Positions 19,565 through 35,289 of a DNA stretch of 38,480 nt are shown here, piece by piece; position 1 is the first letter of the stretch; each line of letters starts with the position of its first letter. The stretch comes from a virus (taxonomy: Duplodnaviria; Caudoviricetes), in IMG/VR virus record IMGVR_UViG_3300045996_001293, positions 1 to 38,480 of that record. One strand, written 5' to 3'. The notes beneath the pieces were generated by a model that did not search any database, was not told the origin of the DNA, and worked only from the letters and a program-made list of their open reading frames with translations. The translations under genes were made by a program, and so were the position numbers.

Positions 19565-20536
19565 TTACGCCACCACGCTGGCGAAGAAGTAGCCCATGCT
19601 GCTGGCCACGATCTTCATATCCGACGCCATCTCGGACTCGATGCGGTCGGAGCTCAGGAGCTCCGCGCGAATCCGCTTGGTGCGGAAGCCGTTCTGGGCG
19701 CCGGTGAAGCCCGCCCAGTTGAACGTGTAGCCCGCCGTGGGCGTCATGAGCGACGGCGACGGGGCGCTGTAGCAGAGCAGCGCGTGCTTGCCCCCGATGA
19801 ACGCCATGGAGCTCGCGGCGCCCTCGACCGCCGTCTCGTACACGCTCTCGAGCACCAGGACGCGCTCGATGTCGAAGTACCGGGCCAGCATGGCCAGGTT
19901 GATGGAGTCCGCCGAGGTGTACTTGAACTGGTCCTTGATGGCCGCGCACAGGCGCAGCGCGCTCAGAACCTCGGCGCCGATCACCAGCGTGTTGGGCTTG
20001 AAGCCCGTGGCGCGCTGGATGGTCAGCTTGCCCGTCTCCACGTCGGCGTTGGGGTTGGCCGTCGCCGCGACCGACCACAGCGTGCCCGGGGTGATGTCCG
20101 TCCCCCAGACGCCCGCCTTGAAGAACGAGTTGACCCACTTGCGCTCCCGACGAATCAGGAGCTTCTGGGTGACGTACTCCGTGGCCGCCTTGTCCAGGCT
20201 GAGGACCGAGTCCGCGTTGGCGCGGGTCTGGTCGTCGATGTCCTTGTGGAACGCCTCCACGAGGCAGGAGTACGAGGCCGTGCTGACCTGGAACCCACCA
20301 CCCGCCGACTCGGTGCCCGGCGCGCGAGGCTTGGCCTCGTCGCGGAGGAAGTCCGCCTTGTCGAACAGGTAGTACAGATTGCTCTGCTGGGAAACAGGAA
20401 CGTTCGGGAACACCTTGTCCGCGATGAAGGACGAGGCGGCCTGCACGTAGGCGACGCTGATGTTCGTCAGCGGCGCGTTGACGTGCACGTCACCCGGAGT
20501 GGGCGACGCCTTCTGGATGCGAGTCCGTGGAGCCAT
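19565..20536 (-). CDS. Major capsid protein (HK97 fold, lambda gpE-like family)
   Basis: 323 aa from ATG 20536; PLTNISVAY, FIADKVFPNVPV, TGFKPNTLVIG, PTAGYTFNW motifs; follows scaffold and cement genes. Confidence 0.9.
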   Translation of the reverse strand: MAPRTRIQKASPTPGDVHVNAPLTNISVAYVQAASSFIADKVFPNVPVSQQSNLYYLFDKADFLRDEAKPRAPGTESAGGGFQVSTASYSCLVEAFHKDIDDQTRANADSVLSLDKAATEYVTQKLLIRRERKWVNSFFKAGVWGTDITPGTLWSVAATANPNADVETGKLTIQRATGFKPNTLVIGAEVLSALRLCAAIKDQFKYTSADSINLAMLARYFDIERVLVLESVYETAVEGAASSMAFIGGKHALLCYSAPSPSLMTPTAGYTFNWAGFTGAQNGFRTKRIRAELLSSDRIESEMASDMKIVASSMGYFFASVVA

Positions 20537-20994: not shown

Positions 20995-21894
20995 CTACTG
21001 GGCGTCGCCGGTGAGGCTGGCCTCGTAGGCGTCCGGGTCTTCCACGAGCGCCTTGGTGATCGCCTGCGCCTGCGTGAGCTTGGGGTCCGACTTGCGGAGC
21101 TCCTCGGCGCGCTTCTCGATGGTGGCGCTGATGCTCGGCGCGTCCGTGTCGTTGGAGCCGAGCTCCTCGGTCAGCTTGGCCGACTTGGTGACCGTGGCGA
21201 GCTGGCCCACGATGGTGCCCAGTGCCGCCTGACCCGCCGCGTCCAACTGCTTGAGCAGCGCGACGACCGGCTCGGTCTGCAGGCCGGTCTCGCCCACGAG
21301 CGCGGTCGCCTTGGCGACGAGCTCGCGCTGCGCGGCTTCCTGGGCCGCCTTCTCGACCTGCTCCTTGGCCTCGCTGGCCGCCTTCTCGATGCTCTCGATG
21401 TAGGCCAGCGCGGCAGGCGTCAGGCCCTTGCGGATTTCCTCGGGCGTGTTCATGTCCTGGTCCTTGGTGATGGAAGTGGGGGCGCCCGAGTTGGGCGTGG
21501 AATCGACGGGCTCCTGGTTAACGCCAGGCACGTTCTTGGCAAAGGCTTCCTCCTCCTCCACCAACTCCTCGTCGTCGTCCTCGTCCTCCTCCCCCTTGGT
21601 GACGGCGCCTATCACGCTGTCTCGAAACTCGTCCAGGCTCTTGTTGATGAGGGCAATCCGCCCCTCGGGGGTGAGGTCGTCGGCCAGGACGATGCTGTCG
21701 AGCGACTGGCCGAGCAGGTCCAGGAGCTGGGGCGGCTCCTCGCTCTTGGTGACGCGGCCGAACAGCCGGTCCAGGAGGGACGGCTTGGGGGCCTCCCGCT
21801 TGAACAGGCTGACGCGCGCATGCTGGTTGGCGGGGTGGTCCACGAGGGAGAGCTCCTTGAGGAGGATGTTGCGGAGGGAGCGGCGCTTGGTCAT
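20995..21894 (-). CDS. Capsid scaffolding protein with N-terminal prohead-protease-like ELSLVDHPAN segment
   Basis: 299 aa; acidic tract and coiled coil; many [VILF]-x-K sites; between protease and capsid genes. Confidence 0.8.
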   Translation of the reverse strand: MTKRRSLRNILLKELSLVDHPANQHARVSLFKREAPKPSLLDRLFGRVTKSEEPPQLLDLLGQSLDSIVLADDLTPEGRIALINKSLDEFRDSVIGAVTKGEEDEDDDEELVEEEEAFAKNVPGVNQEPVDSTPNSGAPTSITKDQDMNTPEEIRKGLTPAALAYIESIEKAASEAKEQVEKAAQEAAQRELVAKATALVGETGLQTEPVVALLKQLDAAGQAALGTIVGQLATVTKSAKLTEELGSNDTDAPSISATIEKRAEELRKSDPKLTQAQAITKALVEDPDAYEASLTGDAQ

Positions 21895-21903
21895 GGGAGG
21901 GTC

Positions 21904-23112
21904 TCAGGTGGGAAGTAGCTGACGGAACGTCTTGGCGACGAGCCCCAGAGCCGCGTCTTCCTTCTGCTTGGCCTTGAGCTCCTTCTCCTCTTCCTTGGGG
22001 TCGCGCTTCCCGCCCGCCTTGAGGTGGGCCGCCATGTGCGCCTCGAGCTCGGTGGCGGAGAGGGGGATCTTGCTGCGGGGCTTCAGGAGTGCGGCGCTTT
22101 GCTCCGTGGTGAGGTGGCAGTGGGCGCAGGCGTGGTCCGTGATAGCCTTGGCGCGGTGCTTCTCGGTGCCCGGCGCGTGGGGAATGGGCCCGCTGTTCTC
22201 GCGTGCCTTGGTGGCCTGCTCCTCCGCCTTGGTGGGTTTGGCCTTGAGGAGCTCAGCAAAAGACGCGGCTTTCTTGACACGGGGGTTGATCATCTGGGCA
22301 GCCTGTTCGTGGTGGCGACGAGCCTGCGTGAAGTGTTCGCGTCCGACGTCGAGCCGGGCGATTTCCCAGTCCTCGCTGGGGGCCTGACCCACGCCCGCCA
22401 TGAAGTGCTGCCCCGCTGCCGTGTGGGCGCGTCCCGCTGCCGTGTGGGATTCCACGGAGGGAAGCTTGGTCGCTGCTTCGCTGGCGAGGTTGGCGTCCCG
22501 GTGGATGACGGTGGCTTCGCGCCGGGTCTCGGGTGCCATGTCTGCGACCGCGGCCTTGAAGCGCCCGCCCTTGCCACGTGGATGATCGCTCTCGCTCCAC
22601 TTGGTCAGGAGCTCCACGTAGTCGTGGCGCTCGCCCTCGCCGCCAATGGAGAACGCCTTGAGCTCGCCCTTCTTGACGCGCATCCACGTGGCGTCGTCCG
22701 GCACGTGCATGCCCACGAACCAGCCTTCCCGGCCCAGGTCCACGCCGAGCGCGTCCTGGAGCTCCTTGGTGAAGACGATGCTGTCCACCACGGTTCCCAC
22801 CCGGTGGCCCTTGTGCATGGCCTTTCCGGTGCGGTCGTCCATGAACTTGTGAACAGTTTTCTGAAGCTCGCCCGTGTCCACGACGTCGCCCTGCCGGTCG
22901 GTGACGGGTTGGCCCTTCTCCACACTCACGAGCGCCCAGCCCCACACGAGGCGCTGCTCGTCGTCGAACTTCTGGACCGTCTCGGGCGGGGTCAGGAACC
23001 GCTTGACGAGCGCTTCGACCTCGGGCTGGACCTCTTCCGGCGCACGACCGGCGTCCACCGCCTCGGCGGTCAGCGTCAACAGATCGTGGGCGAATTGCGC
23101 GGCTGGGTACAT
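21904..23112 (-). CDS. XkdF-like prohead serine protease with a long C-terminal extension
   Basis: KFDDEQRLVWGWA, DRQGD, AMH, GWFVG, W.RVKKGELKAFSIGG motifs; start taken as ATG 23112 because the longer ORF overlaps the upstream gene; extension begins WSESDHPRGKGGRF. Confidence 0.88.
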   Translation of the reverse strand: MYPAAQFAHDLLTLTAEAVDAGRAPEEVQPEVEALVKRFLTPPETVQKFDDEQRLVWGWALVSVEKGQPVTDRQGDVVDTGELQKTVHKFMDDRTGKAMHKGHRVGTVVDSIVFTKELQDALGVDLGREGWFVGMHVPDDATWMRVKKGELKAFSIGGEGERHDYVELLTKWSESDHPRGKGGRFKAAVADMAPETRREATVIHRDANLASEAATKLPSVESHTAAGRAHTAAGQHFMAGVGQAPSEDWEIARLDVGREHFTQARRHHEQAAQMINPRVKKAASFAELLKAKPTKAEEQATKARENSGPIPHAPGTEKHRAKAITDHACAHCHLTTEQSAALLKPRSKIPLSATELEAHMAAHLKAGGKRDPKEEEKELKAKQKEDAALGLVAKTFRQLLPT

Positions 23113-23165: not shown

Positions 23166-24323
23166 CTAACCCCGTGCGTGCTGGAGTGCCCGAATTCCTT
23201 CCTGGTAATCCGCGAACCCTTGGATGTTGTGGGCCCGCGTTGGGGGGAGAATGAGCACGGGCGCCGTGGGGCGGTAGCCGGGGAACCCCAGCCCGCGCGA
23301 GAAGCTTGTGGAGTGCTGCCATGCGCCCATGCGCACGCCGATCACCGTGCGCGGCCCGGGGTGACGGGTCTCCACGGCGGCCACGTGATTGTCGCCAATA
23401 CAGAGCGCATCCGGCAGGAGGGTCCGGCCCTCCGTGTCCGTGGGCCACTCGTTGACCATTTCCTCGAGCCACCGCCAGCAGGCGTGCGTGATATTGAGGG
23501 CGCTGTGGCGCCGGTACTTGTGCCGGGTCGCAATGACCCAGCGCGCGGTCGTCTCGCCGGTCGTGGGGCTCACAATCTCCACCACGTAGATCAGCTCATC
23601 CGGCGCGTAGTGCACATGGTGCCGCTCGGCCAGGAGCTTGAGGTGGTCCAGCCCGACCAAGGCCCGGAGCCACGCGTCATGGTTGCCGTCGGTCATGCCG
23701 ACCAAGCGCCCCTTGAAGCGGCCCACGAGCAGGTCCAGAATGCGGAACTCCTCCGGCACGTCCTTGGCGTCCGTGGGCTTGTGCTTGATGGGGTTGTCGC
23801 CAAGGTCCCCTACGGCCAGCGCCCAGAGCCCCTCCGCCGCGCCCACGGCATCCGCGTAGGCAAACAGCGCGCGCAGGTCCGTGGCCGACTTGGGGGTCAC
23901 GTGCCAGTCCGAGCTCACGGTGAGTCCCACGGGCTTGTCACTGACGAACCGCAGGGTGACGTAGCTTTGGGCCCGGGCTTTGGCCACCGCGGAGTCCGTG
24001 GCGGTCAGGACGCGCTGGAGGAACGCCTCGTCACTCTCGGGCTGCGTCTCCTCCGGGGCAATGATAGTACACAGGTCCGGGCCCGTCGATTGCGGGGCAA
24101 CCACTTCTCGCGTGAGAGTGATGCCCGGGAGCGTCAGTGGGGCAACGTGGAACTCCGCGTCTGCCGGCCAGTGCCCCGCGTTCCGCAGGGTGTATTTCCG
24201 GCAGCTGATGCTGTGGGCGGACCGGCCCATGGCGTGGGCGACTTGGGCGAGGTTGCCCCGGTGTTGCTTCCAAGCCGCGAGGAGGCGAGCGTCATCCTCG
24301 GGGGTCCAGGTCTGTCGGGCCAT
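23166..24323 (-). CDS. N-terminal HTH (Myb/GcrA-like) plus calcineurin-like metallophosphoesterase
   Basis: WTPEDDARL...QVAHAMGRS.HSI HTH; SDWH, VGDLGD, GNHD, RHKY.RHS, GDNH metal-binding motifs. Confidence 0.85.
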   Translation of the reverse strand: MARQTWTPEDDARLLAAWKQHRGNLAQVAHAMGRSAHSISCRKYTLRNAGHWPADAEFHVAPLTLPGITLTREVVAPQSTGPDLCTIIAPEETQPESDEAFLQRVLTATDSAVAKARAQSYVTLRFVSDKPVGLTVSSDWHVTPKSATDLRALFAYADAVGAAEGLWALAVGDLGDNPIKHKPTDAKDVPEEFRILDLLVGRFKGRLVGMTDGNHDAWLRALVGLDHLKLLAERHHVHYAPDELIYVVEIVSPTTGETTARWVIATRHKYRRHSALNITHACWRWLEEMVNEWPTDTEGRTLLPDALCIGDNHVAAVETRHPGPRTVIGVRMGAWQHSTSFSRGLGFPGYRPTAPVLILPPTRAHNIQGFADYQEGIRALQHARG

Positions 24324-24388: not shown

Positions 24389-24715
24389 TTACCGGACGGT
24401 GGCCGCCACCAACGCGCGCAGCGCGGGCTCGAGCTCGTCCAATGGGAGGACCTTGGTGACCGCTTGCTGGATGAGGGCCTCGGCTTGCGTGCGGAAGTTG
24501 GAGACGTCCTTCCCGTTCACGTACTCCTGGAGCTCGGCGTAGATGGCATCCAGCTCGGCTTGAAGCTGTTCGGGGGAGTCGCCCCGGGTGAGGGCCTCGG
24601 CCGTCTTGGCGCACAGGGCACCCAGGTACAGGAAATAGGGCCACGTGGGCTCGGCTGCCGCCTCGCGCTCCAGGAACTCCCCCAGCCCGTCGTTGCGTTC
24701 GTGTACGCTGCTCAC
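24389..24715 (-). CDS. Small acidic helical protein coupled to the ADP-ribosyltransferase gene (candidate immunity/partner)
   Basis: GTG at 24715 overlaps the upstream TGA (alternative ATG at 24724); about 108 aa. Confidence 0.6.
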   Translation of the reverse strand: MSSVHERNDGLGEFLEREAAAEPTWPYFLYLGALCAKTAEALTRGDSPEQLQAELDAIYAELQEYVNGKDVSNFRTQAEALIQQAVTKVLPLDELEPALRALVAATVR

Positions 24716-27417
24716 TTGACCCATCCTGTCTGTTGGTGGGGCGGGAGTACGGTGGCCTTGATCACGAGTTGGCCGTTCTTGTACTCCACGTGGTCCACGT
24801 GGTACCGGGTGTTGCGGGGCAGGAGCACCTCGTACTCATAGGCGCTCGTGCTTCCCTGTGAGTTCAAGTATAGCCCTCTTGTACCCTTCGGCACGTTCAG
24901 GTGCAGGCTCGTGTTGGCGTAGCTTCCGAAGCTCCCGTGCAAGCTGGTGCTCATGAACGCCGGGTCCTCGATGATGCGGCCCAAGAGGGACTTCCCCTTC
25001 TGCCCTTCGTGCAGCTTGGACCCAAAGTTTCGGATCACACGCAGGTCCCGGTCCAGCACCGCGTTGCCGAGCGCCTTGTCCAGATTGCGGATCTTCTCTG
25101 TGGCGGCGCCCCCACTCCGGAGGTGGGAGTTGATGCTGGAGTACCCGCTCCCCTGATAGCTGCTGAGTGCCTGCGCCTGCGGCCCCGGGAGCGCGGCGCG
25201 GTACTGGGCGGCGGCCTTGTTGAGGTGCTCGTGTTGCACCTGTGGGAAGTCCGCTCGCGGGCCCGGAGTGTTGAGGCTCTTCCCCACGACCTTGAGCGTG
25301 CTGACCGTCTCCCCCACGTCCGCAGCCTTGAACGGCTTGCTCGCTTCCCACGCATTGACCTTGGCGAGGAGCTCGCCCTTGTAGGTCTGGAGGCTGGGAG
25401 CGTACACGGGAATGTTGGCGAGGGCCCCAGCGGGATCCGGTGCGTTGTAGGCATCCTGGAGCGCCTTGACCTTCTTCTTGAACAACTCCTGTTGGTCCAC
25501 CGGGTACTTGGTGTCCACGGCGGGCGCCGGGGGCAGCGCGGGCATGGGGTGCTTCTTGCCTGCGGCGCTCGCGAGCGGGCTGGGCGTGGTGTCAATGACG
25601 ACTTCCGGTGCCTTGAAGTGGACCGTGCTCCCCTTGAGCTGTCCCTCGAGCGAGGCAATGGCCTCGGTCTTGTAGGCGACCGTGACCGATGAGGGGACCG
25701 TGGGCGGGGTCTTGAGCGCCTTCAACCCGGCCAAGTCCCCCTTGTCGTGGAGCTCCTTGATGTGGTCGAGGTGGGCGGAGGTGTTGGGATACTGGTCGTT
25801 GTAGACGTCGTGCTGGATCACAGCGGGGTGGCTGGCGGGGTGCGTGAACGGCGTGATGGCCGTGGGGCTGCCTGCCGTCGCCTTGGCCGGGCTGAGCATG
25901 GCCGCCTTGTAGTCCTTGGCGGCGGGGCTCGAGGGCTTGTACGCCATGACCCCCGCGTGGTCCCCCTTGGCGTGGAGGTTCTGCAGGTCCTGAATCTCGT
26001 ACCCGGTGCCGGTGCTCGGCTGGTAGTGGACCTGGTTTCCGTTGACGTCCCAGAAGGCGTAGTCGCCCGTGCCGCCCATGTACGTGCTGGTGGGGAGGGG
26101 TCCCAACGTTGGTGCGGCTCCTCCCACGGCCCCCGCTGCCTGCTGGGCCTTCAGCGAGGCAATAGCCGCCTTCTTGTACGGCGTGGTGACCTGCCCGCTC
26201 TGGAACTTCTCGAGCCCGTCCAGGTCGCCCGTGTCATGGAGCTCCTTGATTTTGTGGAGCTTGTGATCCACGCCGCCACTGCCCGTGCCGCTGGCATAGG
26301 ACTGCATGGACGGGTGGGTGTCGAACGGCTCCAGGGGCGTGATGGTCTTGGGTCCTGCGGTGACGGTGGGGGTCAGCCCCTTCGGCTTGTTGGCGAGGAT
26401 GGCCTTTTTGTATGTGGATGCCGCCGTGTAGCCCGGCTCGTTGAGCGCTTCGACCGCGTCGAAGCCTCCCTTGTTGTATGCGGCCTGGAGCTCCTTGATC
26501 TCCTTCATCTCAGAATCGAGCAAGTCGCCGGGGGCGTAGCCGGTGGTGGCCGCGTTGACCGGGGGCAGCTTGGGCTTGAGGAAGCCCTTGGCGGGCGCCT
26601 TGCTCGCGAGCAGGTCCGCCTTGTAGTCCTTTCCTGCGGCGGACATGGGCTGGTACGCCTCTACGGCGGCAGCGCCCTTGGCGTGGGCGGCTTTGAGTTT
26701 GCCGAGATCGTGATCCGACTCAATGGTGCCGTCGGCATGGTGGCCGTAGGTTTCCCAACCGCTGACGTCATCCGTATGCGTGGGCGGCAAAGGCCCCAGC
26801 TTCTTGGGAGCTGCGACGGTGACCGCCTGCGTCAGCTTCCCGTTGCTGTGGTGGGCGTAGAGAGCCGCCTGATACTCCTTGAGCGCCTTGGGGGAGCTCG
26901 CGGGCAGAGCGATCTTGTTGAGGTCCTCCACGGACTGGGCCGCCTGCATCTGGGAGGCGAGCTTCCCGTGGTACTTCCCAATGGGTCCGTTCGTGTTGAG
27001 CGTGGGGAAGTCCGGTGGGGGGAGCTTGGCCGCCTGCGTCATGGCCGCCATGCCCTTGGCTTCCGCCAGGTACTTGTGGTATTTGACGCTGTTGGGGTGG
27101 TTGCTCACGCTGTACTTGGGGAGCTTCTCGAGCGCCCCCACGGGGTCGTCGCTGGCAAGGGCCTCGTTGATGGCGAGGAACTTCTTGTTGAGCCCTGCCG
27201 CCGCGTCGGACTGGCCCCCGGACCACGGGGTCTTGAGCCCGGGGATGTACTTCGCCTTGGGGATACCGGCAATGAACTTGCCGTCCGGCCCGCGCGGGTG
27301 CTCCACCTCAATGAAGGCGGCAGCCACGCTCTTGAGCACGTCCCCCAGCGTCCGGGGCGCCTCCTCGTCCTGGGCTGTGGTGGCGAGAGTCGCCCGCAAC
27401 GCATCAATGTCAAGCAC
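24712..27417 (-). CDS. Large repeat protein with C-terminal VIP2/Alt-like ADP-ribosyltransferase domain
   Basis: GGAGG then GTG at 27417; N-terminal HPRGPDGKF; helical repeats; Y.G.GY..IN..LR, VIR, FMSTS, YEYEVLLPRNTRY (R-S-ExE signature). Confidence 0.9.
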   Translation of the reverse strand: MLDIDALRATLATTAQDEEAPRTLGDVLKSVAAAFIEVEHPRGPDGKFIAGIPKAKYIPGLKTPWSGGQSDAAAGLNKKFLAINEALASDDPVGALEKLPKYSVSNHPNSVKYHKYLAEAKGMAAMTQAAKLPPPDFPTLNTNGPIGKYHGKLASQMQAAQSVEDLNKIALPASSPKALKEYQAALYAHHSNGKLTQAVTVAAPKKLGPLPPTHTDDVSGWETYGHHADGTIESDHDLGKLKAAHAKGAAAVEAYQPMSAAGKDYKADLLASKAPAKGFLKPKLPPVNAATTGYAPGDLLDSEMKEIKELQAAYNKGGFDAVEALNEPGYTAASTYKKAILANKPKGLTPTVTAGPKTITPLEPFDTHPSMQSYASGTGSGGVDHKLHKIKELHDTGDLDGLEKFQSGQVTTPYKKAAIASLKAQQAAGAVGGAAPTLGPLPTSTYMGGTGDYAFWDVNGNQVHYQPSTGTGYEIQDLQNLHAKGDHAGVMAYKPSSPAAKDYKAAMLSPAKATAGSPTAITPFTHPASHPAVIQHDVYNDQYPNTSAHLDHIKELHDKGDLAGLKALKTPPTVPSSVTVAYKTEAIASLEGQLKGSTVHFKAPEVVIDTTPSPLASAAGKKHPMPALPPAPAVDTKYPVDQQELFKKKVKALQDAYNAPDPAGALANIPVYAPSLQTYKGELLAKVNAWEASKPFKAADVGETVSTLKVVGKSLNTPGPRADFPQVQHEHLNKAAAQYRAALPGPQAQALSSYQGSGYSSINSHLRSGGAATEKIRNLDKALGNAVLDRDLRVIRNFGSKLHEGQKGKSLLGRIIEDPAFMSTSLHGSFGSYANTSLHLNVPKGTRGLYLNSQGSTSAYEYEVLLPRNTRYHVDHVEYKNGQLVIKATVLPPHQQTGWVK

Positions 27418-28909
27418 GGACTCGCCTCCCGAGTGGCCGGTATGGCGACCACACACTGTCAAGGATGTACTTCTCCAGCGCGACCTTGGGCGTGTTCTGC
27501 AACACGCCGCTCACGGTGGTGCTCACGTCTTTCTGTAGCTGGGCGAACTCCCGCTCCGTGCTCGCTCGGTGGCGCCCCTTGAGGGCGTTGACCGCTGCTG
27601 CGGTGCCGTGCGCCGTGCGGATGTCCTTCAGCAGCAGCTTCCGGTCCCCGGTCAATGTCTTGAACAGGTCCCGGACCTTGCCCTCGTCCGTGTCGAACAA
27701 CCGCTCCTCGCCTGCGCGCTGTCGGAGCTTTACGTGCTTGGCCAGCACGCGGTCCTCCACGGACGTGGTGTACAACTTACCGTTCTTGGCCTGGAACGCA
27801 AAGTCCACGCGGTCGCCCACCACGGTGGCGGCGCTGGTGGGCATGTTGGTGGCACCGAACGCCTTGATGGCGGCGCCGGTGTCGCGGTCACTGCCCGGGC
27901 GCATCCCCGTCTTGGCAATGAGCCGGAGCGCCAGGGCGTCGTCGCCGCTGGCCCCGTCCAGCTTTGTGTTGAACGTTTCCCATTGGTCCGCGAGCGAGCG
28001 CACCCGCTTCGTCTTGAGCGCAGAGTTGGCCTGCTCCGTGGCGTCCAGGTAGAACCGCTTGCTGCGCCCCTTGGCGTCCGTCACCTCGCCCACGTAGCTG
28101 CGCCCGGAGTGGGAGTTGGGCGGGAAGTACCGCTGGTTGGTGTAGCCCGGCGCTGCGAAGCCCTTGCCCGCAATCTCGTTCAGGTGAGACTGGGCCAGCT
28201 CATCCAACGGATTGCCGTCCTCGCCGAGCCAAATGGCGGGACGCTTGGCCTTCTTGGGGAGCGGGCCCGCAATGGCTAGGCTCGAGACGAACTGTCCCTG
28301 ACTGTCGCGCGGGTGCTCGTGCTCCTCGAACGTGGGCTGGGCACGCTTGGCAAAGACGTCCGTACCACGCGGGCCCGCCACCTCGGGTCCGAACTCCAAT
28401 GGGAACGGTGGGGTGTTGAACTCCTCCGGCAGCGGCCCGTTGTAGTACAGTGTGACGTGCGGGGTGTACGCCGGGTAGTCCCAAGTGGCCCCATGCCGGC
28501 GTGCGCCTTTCCACCGAGCTTGCAACGAGGGGCTGCGGAGCTTTAGGACCACCGCCCGGTCAGTCCCGAGCCGTTGCCAGCCGAGGAAGTCCCGTTGCGG
28601 CACAACGAGCGTGTCCTCCTCGGCCAGCCACGGGAACGCGCGGCGGCTGTGGACAATCGTCACGTGCAGGTTGGCGTCCAGCGGGGGCAGCCCCTCCTCT
28701 TGGGCCCACTCCCGGAGCTTGGCGTCGCACGCGGGGGTCAGGGCCCTGGCCACGTACAGCCCCGGGTCGGGTACCAGGAGCGCCTTGAGCATGGCGGCGA
28801 GCGCCTTGCGGCGTCGCTTCATGGGCTTCCATGTTGCGCTATCCGCGTGGACGTCGCCGGGGGTCAGGTCCTTCGTGACCGCGCGGAACGCCTCAGCCCA
28901 AGAGCCCAT
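27410..28909 (-). CDS. Fusion of Acb1-like 2H phosphoesterase and DNA topoisomerase IB catalytic domain
   Basis: LYVAR..WAQEEG, LHVTIVHSR, GATWDYPAYTPHVTLYY (two HxT); linker HPRDSQGQF; then GMRPGS, FGAT, F.AKNGK, KDIRT.HGT, LQNTPKVALEKYI (R-K-R-N-Y); start uncertain (28909 or 28821). Confidence 0.85.
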   Translation of the reverse strand: MGSWAEAFRAVTKDLTPGDVHADSATWKPMKRRRKALAAMLKALLVPDPGLYVARALTPACDAKLREWAQEEGLPPLDANLHVTIVHSRRAFPWLAEEDTLVVPQRDFLGWQRLGTDRAVVLKLRSPSLQARWKGARRHGATWDYPAYTPHVTLYYNGPLPEEFNTPPFPLEFGPEVAGPRGTDVFAKRAQPTFEEHEHPRDSQGQFVSSLAIAGPLPKKAKRPAIWLGEDGNPLDELAQSHLNEIAGKGFAAPGYTNQRYFPPNSHSGRSYVGEVTDAKGRSKRFYLDATEQANSALKTKRVRSLADQWETFNTKLDGASGDDALALRLIAKTGMRPGSDRDTGAAIKAFGATNMPTSAATVVGDRVDFAFQAKNGKLYTTSVEDRVLAKHVKLRQRAGEERLFDTDEGKVRDLFKTLTGDRKLLLKDIRTAHGTAAAVNALKGRHRASTEREFAQLQKDVSTTVSGVLQNTPKVALEKYILDSVWSPYRPLGRRVRA

Positions 28910-29834
28910 CAAGCACCATCCGGATGAAGATCACGCACCGGCAGTTCGGGTGCGCCGCTGGACCCATGATCGTGCTTCCGTCCGGCATGACAAAGGGTTC
29001 GTGAAACGCCACCCCCTCGGGGTTGAGCTCCGGAATGGGCTTGCACATGGGGCAGACGCGCTCGTCCTTCGCCACGTGCCAGAACCGGCGGAGCTCGTGC
29101 GCCTGGACCTTGCCTTCCTGAATGGCCTGCTGCCACTTGAGGTGCCCGCCCTTCCACAGCGCGGTGATGCTCTCCGTGCGCGCGACGGTTTCCGCCCGCT
29201 GCTTGAGGAGCTTCTCCTCGAACCGCTTGACGTGCGTCTCAATGGCGTCCGGGGTCAGGGCGCTCTTGGCCTCGGCGGCCCGGAGAATGCTCCGGTCGAA
29301 CCGCTTGTCCCGGGTGTTGCGCCGCAGGGCTTCCTTGAGCGGCTGGCCCTTCGCGCCCCCGCTGAGGAGCTTGCGGTAGTTGTGTACCGCTTGCACGTCC
29401 TTGGGGGCCATGCCCACCAATGGACGGAGCTGGATTGCCGTCGTGGTGGGGTGAACACCGCCCCGGAGCCCCAGCTCCAGGTGGTGGAGCACTCCCGCGC
29501 GCAGCTCCGCGGACACGTTCTGCACCAGCTTCAACTCACTCTGGCGCAGCGCCGTGCTGACGGCGGGGTTGAAGAGGTTGAAGTTGACGCTCAGGAGCCC
29601 GGGAATCCGCTGTGCGCCACCCACCACGGCCTCCCGCAGGAGCGCCTGGAACTCGCTGAGGTCCAGGTGCTGGAGCAGGAGCTCCGGGTTGTTGGTGCGG
29701 ACCACCTCCGCCAGGAGCTCGGGGCTGGCCCCCGTCTTGAGGTGCGCCACCGCGCGCTGGAAGGCGTCCCGGAGCTTGGGCTCGAGCCGGGTGGCGTAGG
29801 CATCCAGCTCGGCCCAAACGGCCTCGTCGCTCAT
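28893..29834 (-). CDS. Head morphogenesis protein (Mu gpF / SPP1 gp7 family)
   Basis: RAETVARTE, W.VAKDERVCPMC, GPAAHPNCRC; follows the portal gene. Confidence 0.92.
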   Translation of the reverse strand: MSDEAVWAELDAYATRLEPKLRDAFQRAVAHLKTGASPELLAEVVRTNNPELLLQHLDLSEFQALLREAVVGGAQRIPGLLSVNFNLFNPAVSTALRQSELKLVQNVSAELRAGVLHHLELGLRGGVHPTTTAIQLRPLVGMAPKDVQAVHNYRKLLSGGAKGQPLKEALRRNTRDKRFDRSILRAAEAKSALTPDAIETHVKRFEEKLLKQRAETVARTESITALWKGGHLKWQQAIQEGKVQAHELRRFWHVAKDERVCPMCKPIPELNPEGVAFHEPFVMPDGSTIMGPAAHPNCRCVIFIRMVLDGLLG

Positions 29835-29947: not shown

Positions 29948-31258
29948 CTAGCCCTGCGTGACGGTGTGGGGCAGGTTGGCCACGGACTTGAGGTGCTGCT
30001 CGAGCTTCGGGTCGGGGAACAATTGCGCGCCCGCGCCCGCAATGGACGTGATGAAGGCGCCCAGCGCCTCGAGGTTCGGCGCCTGGAAGTCGCCCGGCTT
30101 GAGCGTGGGGCGGAGCTTTTCGTCGAAATTGTTGAACTTCCACAACCGCCCCACGAGGTGACGGTTGATTTGGTCTCCAATCACCCCGAGGAACGCTCCG
30201 CCCGCCTTGGCAAAGAGGTCCGTTTTGTCGCTACTGAGGGCGAACGACCCCACGGCTTCCTGACCGAGCATGATGAAGTCCGTCATCATTGAGCTGAGCA
30301 TCCGCCGGTCGTAGCGGTCCACAATGGGGCTCAGGTCAGCGGGCTTCTTGTTGTCCGCCACCACGAACCCCAGGTCGTACAGTGGGGTCTTGGTCTCGTG
30401 GTGGACGTCGCTGGGAATCACCACGCTCCCCATGCGGTCCGCCGCCACCCGGTCCGCCATCTGGCGCCACATGTTCCCAATCGCGAGCTCGGGCCCGCTC
30501 AACCCGCTCTCCAGGTACTTGCCCGGAATGCGCGCCACCACGATGCCTGCCGCGCGCACCGCCGCGCGTCCCTCCGCCTCCTCGATGGTGTTCTTGCGGA
30601 GGTACGTGATGTAGGCGTTGCGCAGAATGCTGCGCCCTTCCGGGCTGCGGAGGCGCGGCGAGGTGGTGAAGTTGAGCAGCTTGTCGCGGGGGATCAGGGC
30701 GTTGGGGCGCCCCAACACGAACTGCTCCAGCCCCAGGAGCTCGCCCGCCTCGTCGAAGTGCCACTGATGCACGGTCTCTTGCGACCGGAGGGCAATCTTC
30801 CCCACGCCGAGGGTGCCGTCCGTGAAGGCGCTGGATTGGCGCGGATCACGCTTGGGGCCTCGGCGGACCTTGTACACCACCTCCATGGGGGCGAAGCCGT
30901 ACTCCAGCATGGAGAGGGCCTCCGCCACGAGGTCCCCGAAGGGGTACATCATGTCCTGGAACAGCACAGACTCGAGCCACTCCTTGGCTTCCACGGCTTC
31001 CGGCGTGTCGTCCTTGGGGTCAATGGTCCACTGGACGTTCCGCAGGAGCATGGTGAACGCGAACAGCGACGCGCCGATGATGGGGTCGTTGTCCGCCATC
31101 TCGCGGTACTTCTTGGCGCCCTGAACCCCCCGGAGCTGGGGGAGGAAGTCCTGGTAGAGGAAGCCCTCGCGCGGGGTCGCGCCCGGGAGCCCTGAGTGAC
31201 CGAGCTCGTGGAGGGCTTCGCCCCGGCTGATAGTGCCGTCCGTCTCGTTGTCAGCCAT
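29948..31258 (-). CDS. Portal protein (DUF935/Mu gp29-like)
   Basis: 436 aa; FLPQLRG..G.K.YREM.DNDP, SMLEYGFAPMEVVYK, PEGRSILRNAY, GSFALS motifs; follows terL. Confidence 0.92.
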   Translation of the reverse strand: MADNETDGTISRGEALHELGHSGLPGATPREGFLYQDFLPQLRGVQGAKKYREMADNDPIIGASLFAFTMLLRNVQWTIDPKDDTPEAVEAKEWLESVLFQDMMYPFGDLVAEALSMLEYGFAPMEVVYKVRRGPKRDPRQSSAFTDGTLGVGKIALRSQETVHQWHFDEAGELLGLEQFVLGRPNALIPRDKLLNFTTSPRLRSPEGRSILRNAYITYLRKNTIEEAEGRAAVRAAGIVVARIPGKYLESGLSGPELAIGNMWRQMADRVAADRMGSVVIPSDVHHETKTPLYDLGFVVADNKKPADLSPIVDRYDRRMLSSMMTDFIMLGQEAVGSFALSSDKTDLFAKAGGAFLGVIGDQINRHLVGRLWKFNNFDEKLRPTLKPGDFQAPNLEALGAFITSIAGAGAQLFPDPKLEQHLKSVANLPHTVTQG

Positions 31259-32537
31259 TGGTCAGGAGCTCGGAGCCAAAGGGGGAATGGAGCACGCCGC
31301 CTTCCACGTTGGCGGACGGAATGTGATGCGCGAGGATGTTCCACTTCTGCCACAGGACGTAGCCCAGGGCGTCCGGCAAGTGGTCCAGCCCTGCGTCCTT
31401 GTCCTGCTGGTTAGTGCCTTCCTTCCACGTCAAACCTTCCAAGCACTTCGTGAGGCGAGGGGTCGTCGAGGGACGCAGGGTGAGGCGACGCCGCCCACTA
31501 CCGGACTTGAGAAGGCTTTGCACGTTGTTGACACGGTCATGCACGCGCGGGTTACTGCGGTTCACCAACACCTCAAAGCCGTTCGCCGCGAGGATAGACA
31601 GGTCCGTTTGCCCCAAGGGCGCGTTGGTACCCTGCTGTGCTCCCGACGCATCCGGGCACACGATCATACGCCGGTCCGGGTACTTGGCCCGGAGCGCCTC
31701 GCACATTTCCTGAGTGTTACTGCTCTGGAGCTCGAGCTCCCCCAACACCTGCGGCCACCCGAGGCAGTCCTGCACAATGACCGCGCTCATGGGGTTGATG
31801 TTGAAGTCCATGCCCACGTACAGGTCGCGCCCGAGGTCAATGATGGCGCTATCCCAGTTGCCCGTGGGCCAGCCGTGGCGCGTGAAGTTGGCGTAGACGC
31901 GACCCTGGAGCGTCTCAAAGCTGGCCTCGAACTCCTGGCGGAAGACGCGCGGGTCCAGGTCAGCGCGGGCCTCGAGGATTTCACTCTGGAACACCCGCCC
32001 GCCATGCGCAGTGGTGAAGGTGAACGCCTCCCAGCCGGGCTTCTTGGCCACACCGCGCATGTGCGCGTCATAGAAGTGGTTGTAGCCCTTGGGCGTCCCG
32101 AAGAAGCCCGCACGCCCCTGCTTGTCCGCCAAGGCGGGGCGGATGACCTCGTCCCACGTGATGGGGTCAATGTCGGCGAACTCGTCAAAGTCCGCCAGGT
32201 CCAGGCCCGGGCCCCGGAGGCTGTCCGGGTTGTTGGCTCCCAGCAACTGGACCCGGCTCCCGTTCACGAGCTCAATGGAGAGCTCGGACTCGTTCTTCCG
32301 GCGGATGTACGCCGGGGGGATCATGTCCTTCAGGGGACGCCAGAAGATGTCCTTCCCCTGCTTGTACGTGGGGAAAATGACCCGGCATTCCTGGTTCGGC
32401 TTACACACCGCCTGATGGTACTGCCGCACCCCGATGAGCGTGGTCTTCCCAAAGCGGCGGCCTGCCACGAGCGTGACAAACCGGGCCGCACTCCGGAAGA
32501 CGCGCGACTGCGCGACACCAAGGGCGGGGGCGCTCAC
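31251..32537 (-). CDS. terL: Terminase large subunit
   Basis: Walker A AGRRFGKT, LRGPGLD, Walker B DFDEFA, GTPKG, nuclease GMDFN and DHLPDALGY; GTG at 32537 overlaps the upstream TGA. Confidence 0.96.
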   Translation of the reverse strand: MSAPALGVAQSRVFRSAARFVTLVAGRRFGKTTLIGVRQYHQAVCKPNQECRVIFPTYKQGKDIFWRPLKDMIPPAYIRRKNESELSIELVNGSRVQLLGANNPDSLRGPGLDLADFDEFADIDPITWDEVIRPALADKQGRAGFFGTPKGYNHFYDAHMRGVAKKPGWEAFTFTTAHGGRVFQSEILEARADLDPRVFRQEFEASFETLQGRVYANFTRHGWPTGNWDSAIIDLGRDLYVGMDFNINPMSAVIVQDCLGWPQVLGELELQSSNTQEMCEALRAKYPDRRMIVCPDASGAQQGTNAPLGQTDLSILAANGFEVLVNRSNPRVHDRVNNVQSLLKSGSGRRRLTLRPSTTPRLTKCLEGLTWKEGTNQQDKDAGLDHLPDALGYVLWQKWNILAHHIPSANVEGGVLHSPFGSELLTNG

Positions 32538-32710
32538 TTGTCGAGCCGGGCGTGATACTTGACGTGCGTGAGGATGCCCGCCACGCTCTGGGCGAACACA
32601 TACCCGCGCCACGCCCGCGTCCCGGCGAGCTCGCGCCAATCCACCTCGTTGGTGGGGACGTCCTCCCCATCCCGAGGGCCGCCATACGCCGTCACAAAGC
32701 CGGGTTTCAT
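32534..32710 (-). CDS. Hypothetical protein (58 aa, GGPRDG motif)
   Basis: MKPGFVTAYGGPRDGE...; ATGA/GTGA-coupled on both sides. Confidence 0.65.
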   Translation of the reverse strand: MKPGFVTAYGGPRDGEDVPTNEVDWRELAGTRAWRGYVFAQSVAGILTHVKYHARLDK

Positions 32711-33009
32711 GCGGCGTGTACCTCGCCATGACGGATGAACCCGTGCCACCCCTGCCGCACCACGCGGTTGGTGTCGGGCTCCACCTCGTACTCGTTGATG
32801 CTGGGGCTCAGGGAGAGCGTGTCGGGGTACGCGCCTGTGGCGGCCCAACGGTAGGTGCCGTCCGGCTGCTGGCCAGCGGTGCGCCCCACCCGAACCCGCA
32901 ACGTGTGGAACGGGCCAAAGGGGCAGTCGCCCCCGAGGGGGCACAGGAACAGCAACACGCCGTCCTCGAGCGTGCCTTTCAAACGCGGGTCCAGGTCAAT
33001 GAGTCGCAT
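32707..33009 (-). CDS. DUF6527-like small metal-binding protein
   Basis: GGAGGAG then ATG 33009; FLCP..C...H, W..TG...DTLSLSPSI, WHGFIRHGEV pattern. Confidence 0.7.
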   Translation of the reverse strand: MRLIDLDPRLKGTLEDGVLLFLCPLGGDCPFGPFHTLRVRVGRTAGQQPDGTYRWAATGAYPDTLSLSPSINEYEVEPDTNRVVRQGWHGFIRHGEVHAA

Positions 33010-34162: not shown

Positions 34163-34816
34163 CTAGAACAGCGCGAGCTGGGTTGGCGGGCCACTCAAGT
34201 GCTCCCAACACACCACGCACGTAGGCGCACGCTGACCCGGGACCCCCACCTCAACCACAATCGGCTTGGCGCACCGGGGGCAGGCCGTGGCATTGAGCAA
34301 CACGTCCTTGGCCACGGGAAAGGTGTTCGGTCCCCACACCAAGCTCTGCCCGCGCCCGAACCCCATGGGGAGCTCCGTGTCCTCCCCTTCCAGGAAGGTG
34401 TCAAACAATACCTCCCCCTTGGTCGTCACAGCCCACGCCGCCCAGCCTCGCTTCGCAAAGAGGTGCACTGCCTCCACACTCGACGCCTTCGCCTTGACCC
34501 GGGCCAACCCCCGCTTCCGCGCTGCCGCCTCGGCATGGTCGAGCAACACGCGCATGCTCCCGGTGCGCCGGAACGCGGGGTCCGTGTGGAGCCCGTAGAC
34601 GTTCAGGTGCGTCCGAGTGAAGCCCACGGCGCACAGGGCCGTGACCAGGGTCCCGGCGTGGAGCCCGTACACCGTGGCGCCCCTCCACTTGTACACTCGG
34701 AACTCGGCGAGAAGCGCCCGCTCGTTGGCGAGCGCCTTGCTCTTGCCGAGCTTCCCCCGGAACCGCTTCGTGTACAGATCCACGTCCTGAATGGTCGCGA
34801 GCTCTACGACGCGCAC
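34163..34816 (-). CDS. GNAT-family acetyltransferase with C-terminal zinc ribbon
   Basis: GAGGG then GTG 34816; motif A LHTDPAFRRTGSMRVLL, motif B EAVHLFAKRGW; CPRC..CVVC. Confidence 0.8.
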   Translation of the reverse strand: MRVVELATIQDVDLYTKRFRGKLGKSKALANERALLAEFRVYKWRGATVYGLHAGTLVTALCAVGFTRTHLNVYGLHTDPAFRRTGSMRVLLDHAEAAARKRGLARVKAKASSVEAVHLFAKRGWAAWAVTTKGEVLFDTFLEGEDTELPMGFGRGQSLVWGPNTFPVAKDVLLNATACPRCAKPIVVEVGVPGQRAPTCVVCWEHLSGPPTQLALF

Positions 34817-35289
34817 AGCGCCCTCACAAAGTCTAGGGTGGCGAACCAATTCGCCCCCTGCCCCCACTGCCGGGTGGGACGGTTAATGGCGTCCGTGCTG
34901 ACAATGAACTTTAGCCATTCCGGGCGTCCGTCGGCGCGCCAGTAGTACCAATCCTCGGTCCCTACACGCAGCAGGATGCCACAGCGCCCGCCGTTCCGCG
35001 CCCAGCGGTTCAGCCAGAACGCCTGCGCGGGCTGGAGCCCGTGGCCGCCATAGGTCAACACGGGCGTGGTGCTCAGGTCTTTGGGGAGCGCCTTGAGCCA
35101 CTTGAGCTCCAGGAGCCCGGTCAACGGTTGGCCGTCCGTGTGGAACTTATGGTTCCCCTGTTGGTCTACGGGTTTGAGCGTCCAGAGCGTGTCGGGAATG
35201 CCGTCGTTGAAGCGGTCCGTGAGGCGCTCCACGTGGAGGAACGGCTTCAGCTTGGGCTGGAGGTACTCCCACATATTATTTTCGCTCAC
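34804..35289 (-). CDS. PD-(D/E)xK nuclease (VRR-NUC / Holliday junction resolvase-like)
   Basis: SE..MW, GIPD, LLELK, LQPAQAFWL..W.RNGG motifs; GTG 35289 overlaps the upstream TGA. Confidence 0.85.
   Translation of the reverse strand: MSENNMWEYLQPKLKPFLHVERLTDRFNDGIPDTLWTLKPVDQQGNHKFHTDGQPLTGLLELKWLKALPKDLSTTPVLTYGGHGLQPAQAFWLNRWARNGGRCGILLRVGTEDWYYWRADGRPEWLKFIVSTDAINRPTRQWGQGANWFATLDFVRALCAS

Follow-up and report, generated by a model that had tools for sequence, protein, structure and literature searches.

The IMG/VR record IMGVR_UViG_3300045996_001293 (Caudoviricetes), a 38,480-base virus record with a completeness estimate of 46% that was analyzed whole (hereafter the window), contains a real, intact-looking two-enzyme cassette in its phage head operon: a 499-aa gene on the minus strand (27410..28909), in which an Acb1-family 2H phosphodiesterase domain is fused to a type IB topoisomerase (TopIB). 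The fusion extends the head-linked polyvalent cargo proteins by a topoisomerase, a type of cargo that we did not find in print. The minus-strand gene order runs from terminase, portal and MuF through the Acb1-TopIB fusion to a 901-residue ADP-ribosyltransferase (ART) gene, followed by a 111-residue gene, a metallophosphoesterase, an XkdF-type prohead protease, a scaffold, a cement protein and the major capsid protein. The start of the fusion gene overlaps the stop of the upstream MuF gene and its stop overlaps the GTG of the downstream ART gene, which has a GGGAGG upstream of it; promoter and terminator scans returned only chance-level signals.

The gene is a single open frame (27410-28912, minus strand) with a TTG at 28912 and an ATG at 28909; residues are numbered here from the TTG. 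A first-pass annotation of this DNA had placed two HxT motifs and the R, K, R, N and Y of a TopIB active site within one ORF, and these are all confirmed in the same open frame: HVT at residues 83-85 (28658-28666) and 152-154 (28451-28459), R338 (27899-27901), K376 (27785-27787), R432 (27617-27619), N473 (27494-27496) and Y482 (27467-27469). It had also raised the prospect of an assembly artefact, which is ruled out by contigs with zero differences, an unbroken third-position GC and the recurrence of the pairing. A 3,283-base contig of run X2 (25650-28932) spans the whole fusion gene and a contig of run X1 (28179-29304) crosses the junction, both without a single difference; X1 or X2 may be the source sample of the record, and runs X3 and X4 cover pieces only. 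Third-position GC stays at 0.78-0.96 across all ten 50-codon blocks, with no step at the Acb1/TopIB junction, and Acb1 and TopIB are found in one chain in five other proteins (P0002, P0003, P0005, P0053 and P0100). At least half of the record's words are present in soil metagenomes of four studies (four of the six runs listed), and no RNA holder of the record is among the runs listed.

The two enzyme domains

A sequence search against PDB structures returned two matches only, one for each half of the protein: the Acb1 of phage FBB1 (7t26, E 9e-11) and the TopIB of Deinococcus radiodurans (2f4q, E 1.5e-5). The Acb1 domain (residues 50-186; 28355..28765, minus strand) matches the Pfam Acb1 family (PF23474) over residues 51-179 with 91.7 bits against a cut-off of 27. 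Its model (pLDDT 85.7) has 7t26 as best fold match (E 5e-10, TM 0.82 by target, rmsd 2.2), with LigT at E 4e-4 or weaker. In an 18-row tree, the inner branches of which carry no supported order, the domain groups with a T4-like Acb1 and apart from three LigT-like head 2H domains (100/99). Thus, the N-terminal domain is Acb1-like, as had been proposed, and a LigT or RNA-ligase-type 2H identity is rejected given the weaker sequence and fold match and the separate side of the tree.

The likeness to the Acb1 proteins of T4 and FBB1 (Hobbs et al. 2022, PMC9117128; 7t26, 7t27) extends from the fold to the active site: H83, T85, H152 and T154 are the equivalents of T4 H44, T46, H113 and T115, and the base-stacking aromatics Y12, W74 and F107 of T4 correspond to Y53, W111 and Y146 in an alignment to 7t26 and a T4-like Acb1. 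The domain is placed among enzymes of the Acb1 family, and its predicted activity is the cleavage of cyclic di- and trinucleotides that act as alarm signals. In T4, Acb1 stands alone as a protein of 152 residues, whereas here the domain is a module in a head-operon fusion. Acb1 also occurs in other head modules, namely as a portal fusion in the cultured Synechococcus phage Ssp-JY40, fused to an XkdF protease (L045) and fused to DUF2213 proteins. The T4-like Acb1 of Citrobacter phage Citrof4 (L028 571-1194) has a 45-residue C-terminal extension past the lid.

The TopIB half (27437..28240, minus strand), with a small N-terminal and a catalytic domain that includes K429 besides the residues listed above, is recognized by Pfam Topoisom_I (PF01028) at 27.6 bits (cut-off 23.7). 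Its model (pLDDT 91) matches D. radiodurans TopIB with E 1e-11 and variola TopIB with TM 0.67, whereas tyrosine recombinases follow at E 2.5e-3 or weaker and protelomerases, too, fall behind the TopIBs; a tyrosine recombinase or protelomerase identity is rejected on this distance. By hand count, R338, K376, R432, N473 and Y482 align with R137, K174, R239, N280 and Y289 of D. radiodurans TopIB, for the second Arg of which PMC2666729 gives position 237. The Asn in place of His in this pentad is the bacterial state (PMC2647283, PMC2666729). Fold and catalytic set thus agree with the earlier call of a TopIB catalytic core. Across 66 aligned relatives the catalytic R, K and R are invariant and the N and Y are kept in at least 90%; some head-module TopIBs (L053 5840-7684 and L126) have an Asp at the position of the Asn. 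The N-terminal domain is modelled as a helix and three strands, and Foldseek alignments with full-length TopIBs cover 264-274 columns; the Pfam N-domain model of TopIB has no match in the window protein and matches most relatives. The branch leading to the window TopIB is long (1.09 changes per column, 100/100), and the motif after Y482 is changed. If delivered with the DNA, the enzyme is predicted to relax the incoming phage genome.

Phage and cellular TopIBs are split at 100/100. The phage enzymes share with the bacterial ones (D. radiodurans, 2f4q/3m4a; P. aeruginosa, PMC2666729) the two-domain fold and the R-K-R-N-Y set residue by residue, but differ from them in this separate branch, an SDxDT-type insert, the tag described below and their location among head genes. 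Vaccinia TopIB belongs to the same enzyme class, but comes from a eukaryotic virus with its own packaged transcription machinery, has a His in the pentad and carries neither fusion nor tag; it is reported to act mainly in early transcription (PMC12188299), and a title cited there states that the virus encapsidates the enzyme. The TopIBs of jumbo phages (PaBG, RHph_N46 and PhiXhv-12) are likewise phage-encoded and annotated in GenBank, but lack the tag, and head genes are not annotated in the 2.5-4 kb flanks shown.

Shuffled partners of the TopIB module

A TopIB profile search recovered 1,757 clusters at E 0.001 and 1,241 at 1e-10, ordinary cellular TopIBs included. The best 150 of the 1,757 clusters yielded 104 relatives of at least 380 aa, which were scanned for domains at E 1e-4, a few of the matches lying below the Pfam cut-off. 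This survey of domain architectures uncovered fusions to head proteins in 29 of the 104, comprising portal (17), MuF (11) and prohead protease (2) partners; the other partners are Acb1 (4), other 2H domains (4), InPase (8) and ART (3). P0002 combines an ART with Acb1 and TopIB in one chain, and one relative (L127) contains LPD1 and LPD5, which are marker domains of polyvalent proteins. We further examined 19 viral loci, of which two are duplicates: in 16 of the remaining 17, TopIB lies in or near head or packaging genes, with six fusions to portal, MuF or protease, seven cases with portal or MuF close by and three with only terminase or capsid within 7 kb, leaving one without a head gene. Nine loci in genome contigs comprise three portal fusions, two TopIBs beside a portal, one with LPD1 and LPD5 and three without a head domain. 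A head-linked role of the TopIB cargo is well supported by this context. Neither tag nor head context was found for the TopIBs of L024, L025, L018 and BS162P1 within the scanned stretches.

The six Acb1-TopIB proteins fall in three places on the TopIB tree, with three changes needed, and a single origin of the fusion is rejected by an AU test (p 7e-5; 45 of the 76 TopIB rows, six of them fusion rows). With one clade rejected, either the pairing has several origins or its modules have been reshuffled. Hence, the notion of Acb1-TopIB as a dedicated two-enzyme machine does not hold: TopIB is a mobile module of head cargo that is combined with a wide range of partners, and the best reading of the two enzymes is as independent cassettes that would share one delivery route. 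A head-cargo clade apart from the jumbo-phage TopIBs was also considered; it had an SH-aLRT of 97 in a quick 76-row tree and is not claimed here, because the careful 45-row tree gives it no support.

Two loci in genome contigs stand out by their architecture. One, in a contig binned as an archaeon (L123 1-12859), encodes a portal-TopIB fusion of 2,328 aa and, after it, a protein of 1,906 aa in which five ART-PolyVal stretches occur. In the other, from a Castellaniella genome bin (L120 5554-6942), part of a portal stands with a tag and TopIB between a LysR gene and a transposase, perhaps as a prophage relic.

Packaging and a role in destroying immune nucleotides had been predicted for 2H domains fused to MuF or portal (Iyer et al. 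2017, PMC5512222; 2022, PMC9503650). The window fusion resembles the polyvalent proteins of those studies in joining two or more enzyme domains of the conflict type within a single chain, the gene of which lies among those for terminase, portal and head proteins, and its family in having ART and InPase companions and, in the one relative, LPD1 and LPD5; it differs in lacking a MuF, portal or LPD domain of its own, with a leader and a tag instead. Thus, head-packaged 2H enzymes have been in print as a prediction since 2017, and what is new is the leader resembling a capsid N-arm, the cut-like site at a lysine and the HPR tag. Topoisomerase cargo is not named in the main texts of the 2017 and 2022 papers or in one supplement of the latter. 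A literature search that excluded most subscription papers found no paper on a phage head-module TopIB or an Acb1-TopIB fusion and none describing a virion-borne topoisomerase of tailed phages, and the accessible parts of PMC13728456 and two preprints hold nothing on fusions. A virion-borne topoisomerase is known from poxviruses.

Leader, tag and proposed delivery

Two features that were absent from the first-pass annotation flank the Acb1 domain: a leader (residues 2-45; 28778..28909, minus strand) and a tagged linker (residues 187-207). The leader consists of a helix ending in Lys, a segment resembling a capsid N-arm and a basic patch. Its segment KDLTPGDVH (28847..28873) has TPGDVH in common with the N-arm of the major capsid protein of the same phage (20483-20500), in a stretch of the arm that is conserved in a set of 48 capsid proteins. 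In HK97-fold capsids the N-arm binds to neighbouring subunits, and the segment is a candidate capsid-docking mimic on the strength of this shared motif. KDLTPGD-H is invariant in all four leaders compared (that of the fusion and three homologous ones). An arm-like segment also opens a distant TopIB cargo gene in L051 (28.6 bits), and it recurs at the end of 17 ORFs upstream of a capsid gene, the one that was checked being an XkdF protease; these 17 are among the 20 non-capsid frames scoring over 15 bits out of 2,946 frames. Weak when taken alone, the likeness between leader and arm gains weight from the three homologous leaders, the start of the L051 gene and the 17 ORF tails.

The linker carries an HPR-x3-G-x-F tag just before TopIB (28289..28330, minus strand), which recurs at the start of the ART gene (27274-27315) and after the protease domain of the prohead protease (22558-22599), i.e. 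in the window's three head-cargo proteins. With a profile trained on relatives, from which the query and P0002-P0012 were excluded, these three lead all 60,696 window positions: 31.9 bits for the fusion, 31.7 for the protease tail and 18.4 for the ART gene, with the next position at 7.4. In leave-one-out scoring the tag lies upstream of TopIB in 38 of 138 relatives and inside the core in none of the 138. All 11 control TopIBs (cellular, jumbo-phage or solo cultured-phage) lack it, and at 79 capsid-gene loci it scores in three frames upstream of the capsid gene and in none downstream. Other short Gly-rich motifs occupy its place before TopIB in P0044, P0055, P0086, P0109, P0123 and others (e.g. 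RTPEGA..YG.PIG, GSGNFGH.GRPG and CGTG.GGF..GN.C), which suggests alternative tags. In the cultured Edwardsiella phage ZHS (L027 2116-3071) an Acb1-like gene annotated 'prohead protease' lies between terminase and portal, and the 114-aa head-region gene that follows it carries a strong HPR tag.

Directly ahead of the tag there are usually hydrophobic residues and a Lys, in the fusion FAK (28346..28354, minus strand). Hydrophobic-x-Lys repeats at module borders: P0002 has a Lys and the tag both before its ART module and before its TopIB module, and in P0100 several modules are each preceded by F-x-x-I-L-K. When the larger window proteins are compared, hydrophobic-x-Lys is densest in the scaffold and the protease. 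We infer that these are candidate prohead-protease sites, with Lys189 as that of the fusion. A cut there would give Acb1 a free C-terminus at its lid region, the arrangement of the Acb1 proteins of T4 and FBB1 (PMC9117128).

These features are consistent with a capsid-loaded, protease-split cargo of which both enzymes enter the next host, a reading to which we give about an even chance. Under it, the fusion protein would be made together with the head proteins and docked in the prohead by its capsid-arm-like leader and HPR tag, and the phage's own prohead protease would cut after Lys189, separating Acb1, its lid now C-terminal, from a TopIB that keeps the tag. After both had entered the next cell along with the phage DNA, Acb1 would degrade cyclic di- and trinucleotides that signal alarm, and TopIB would relax the newly arrived genome, either easing first transcription, as reported for vaccinia virus (PMC12188299), or blunting defences that depend on negative supercoils. 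Of the earlier proposal of a polyprotein delivering an immune-signal eraser and a DNA relaxase, both domain calls and the head-linked context have been borne out, with delivery as the part that stays conjectural. In a wider and speculative version, which we think unlikely, a large group of uncultured phages would use a modular capsid-loading code (a capsid N-arm copy, a Lys cut site and the HPR tag) to pack interchangeable enzymes, with the packed TopIB relaxing the genome against supercoil-dependent defences, e.g. CRISPR R-loop formation, and the co-packed Acb1 removing alarms from the first minute. Relief of DNA torsion is known to protect a mobile element from SpyCas9 in the case of AcrIIA22 (PMC8545432), which differs in being a small PC4-like nickase with an unrelated fold and no virion link. 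If packaging is true, phages would control genome topology from entry on, and the role of the supercoiling of incoming DNA in early transcription or defence would become testable. The Acb1 of the cassette would then amount to an anti-CBASS enzyme made in advance and would provide a test of whether CBASS signals arise early enough for injected counter-defence to matter. The leader and the tag, both short and separable, are candidates for a signal that directs loading into the capsid.

Several observations weigh against packaging and delivery of the two enzymes. A search of 50,697 records turned up no cultured phage that carries TopIB in a head module, the TopIB matches found there being those of jumbo phages and one solo Bacteroides phage gene. 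In the window the arm likeness is modest, ranking third of 65,812 positions behind one chance match on the opposite strand, and the 17 arm-like ORF tails all come from close relatives. Shuffled controls shared some 6-mer with the window's proteins in 721 of 2,000 cases; narrower tests, which were chosen after the match had been seen, gave 41 of 5,000 sharing a 6-mer with the capsid protein and 7 of 20,000 in another. The strict tag is missing in 100 of the 138 relatives. Many relatives have an acidic partner peptide after TopIB; a profile aligned from 26 hand-picked sequences has no match anywhere in the window, the N-terminus of the ART protein included, and a TopIB loaded into the head would have to be kept off the DNA. 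On the Acb1 side, the position of T4 E141 is occupied by G179, with the Glu missing in several other head-type members too, and the counterpart of the lid aromatic W147 is V185 by spacing or F186 one residue on, where other head-type members have W or Y; the substrate range may therefore differ. E141 is an adenine contact and specificity residue of T4 Acb1 (PMC9117128) rather than a family-wide requirement. Further, T4 Acb1 activity is reported to begin about 15 min into infection and late assembly proteins to determine CBASS activation, so that Acb1 injected with the genome may arrive too soon or in too small an amount. Gene context aside, one preprint reports that the Acb1 of phage G is missing from its proteomic data.

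This timing is the starting point of the main rival, which we regard as rather unlikely: action late in the producing cell, with Acb1 co-made with the CBASS-triggering protease and capsid, TopIB relieving torsion in transcribed or packaged DNA, and any virion protein a passenger. With CBASS reported to fire late, a late-operon Acb1 could indeed act in the producing cell, and the direct fusion of Acb1 to the XkdF protease in L045 and the absence of a detectable acidic partner in the window fit this explanation. Co-transcription, however, does not require fusion to portal or MuF, which is seen in 28 of the 104 long relatives, nor does it require a tag that an ADP-ribosyltransferase has as well, T4 Alt being a head-packaged enzyme of that class (PMC5512222). 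Quite improbable in our view is an internal swivel, with TopIB working in the head by releasing twist during packaging or ejection without being ejected itself, and Acb1 alone or neither domain reaching the host. The ATP independence of TopIB (PMC2666729) would suit such a role, as would its fusion to the C-terminal side of portals of four Pfam families, but the companion domains (Acb1, ART, InPase, GNAT and LPD) have no obvious job in a capsid, and packaged linear DNA has free ends. Moreover, the TopIB fold might serve strand transfer or covalent capture, for instance to join or cap the ends of the genome or to damage host DNA, instead of relaxation. The long branch of the window TopIB, its want of a Pfam N-domain match and the changed motif after Y482 could be taken in this direction. 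Poxvirus TopIB can join DNA ends in vitro. We consider strand transfer still more doubtful, as in fold and catalytic set the protein matches relaxing TopIBs, with recombinases and protelomerases far behind, and relaxation of DNA is established for the P. aeruginosa enzyme, whose set is of this Asn type too (PMC2666729).

The least probable of these alternatives is that the 2H domain is not anti-CBASS and acts on RNA 2',3'-cyclic phosphate ends or another signal. It draws on the PHROGs family label 'RNA ligase', on the unkept E141 and uncertain W147 and on the presence of RtcB and polynucleotide kinase near TopIB in two relatives. Yet Acb1 is the best match in both sequence and fold, the tree groups the domain with T4-like Acb1, the equivalents of Y12, W74, F107 and both HxT motifs are kept, and all nine further Acb1 homologues tested by Hobbs et al. 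(PMC9117128) cleaved cGAMP and cAAA.

Neighbouring genes of the head operon

All of the following genes are on the minus strand. Upstream of the fusion are the genes for the terminase large subunit (31251..32729, the longest ORF; the true start may be further in), the portal protein (29948..31258; Portal_Mu) and the MuF minor head protein (28893..29834). The second cargo gene (24712..27417; 901 aa from the GTG at 27417) encodes a tagged protein, the middle part of which is long and rich in repeats, ending in an ADP-ribosyltransferase domain of the R-S-E type (about 24745-25221), with R, STS and ExE motifs; it is likely an Alt-like second cargo. The XkdF-type prohead protease (21904..23112) has a tagged C-terminal extension, which beyond the tag (21904-22560) comprises ~220 residues without a clear family, including a CxxCH stretch with a weak cytochrome-like Pfam match (E 0.004). 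It is followed by the scaffold-like protein rich in hydrophobic-x-Lys sites (20995..21894) and the major capsid protein (19565..20536).

Between the ART and protease genes, the metallophosphoesterase (23166-24323) is fused to a Myb-like helix-turn-helix and lacks the HPR tag. The 111-aa gene (24389-24724; TAEALTRGDSPEQLQAELDAI) resembles by eye the N-terminal 40 residues of the prohead protease (about 22990-23112; TAEAVDAGRAPEEVQPEVEAL), and its product has no family match or Atlas match. Run X2 contains a second variant with five base changes in this gene (24635-24665). A GNAT acetyltransferase gene (34163-34867) lies upstream of the terminase.

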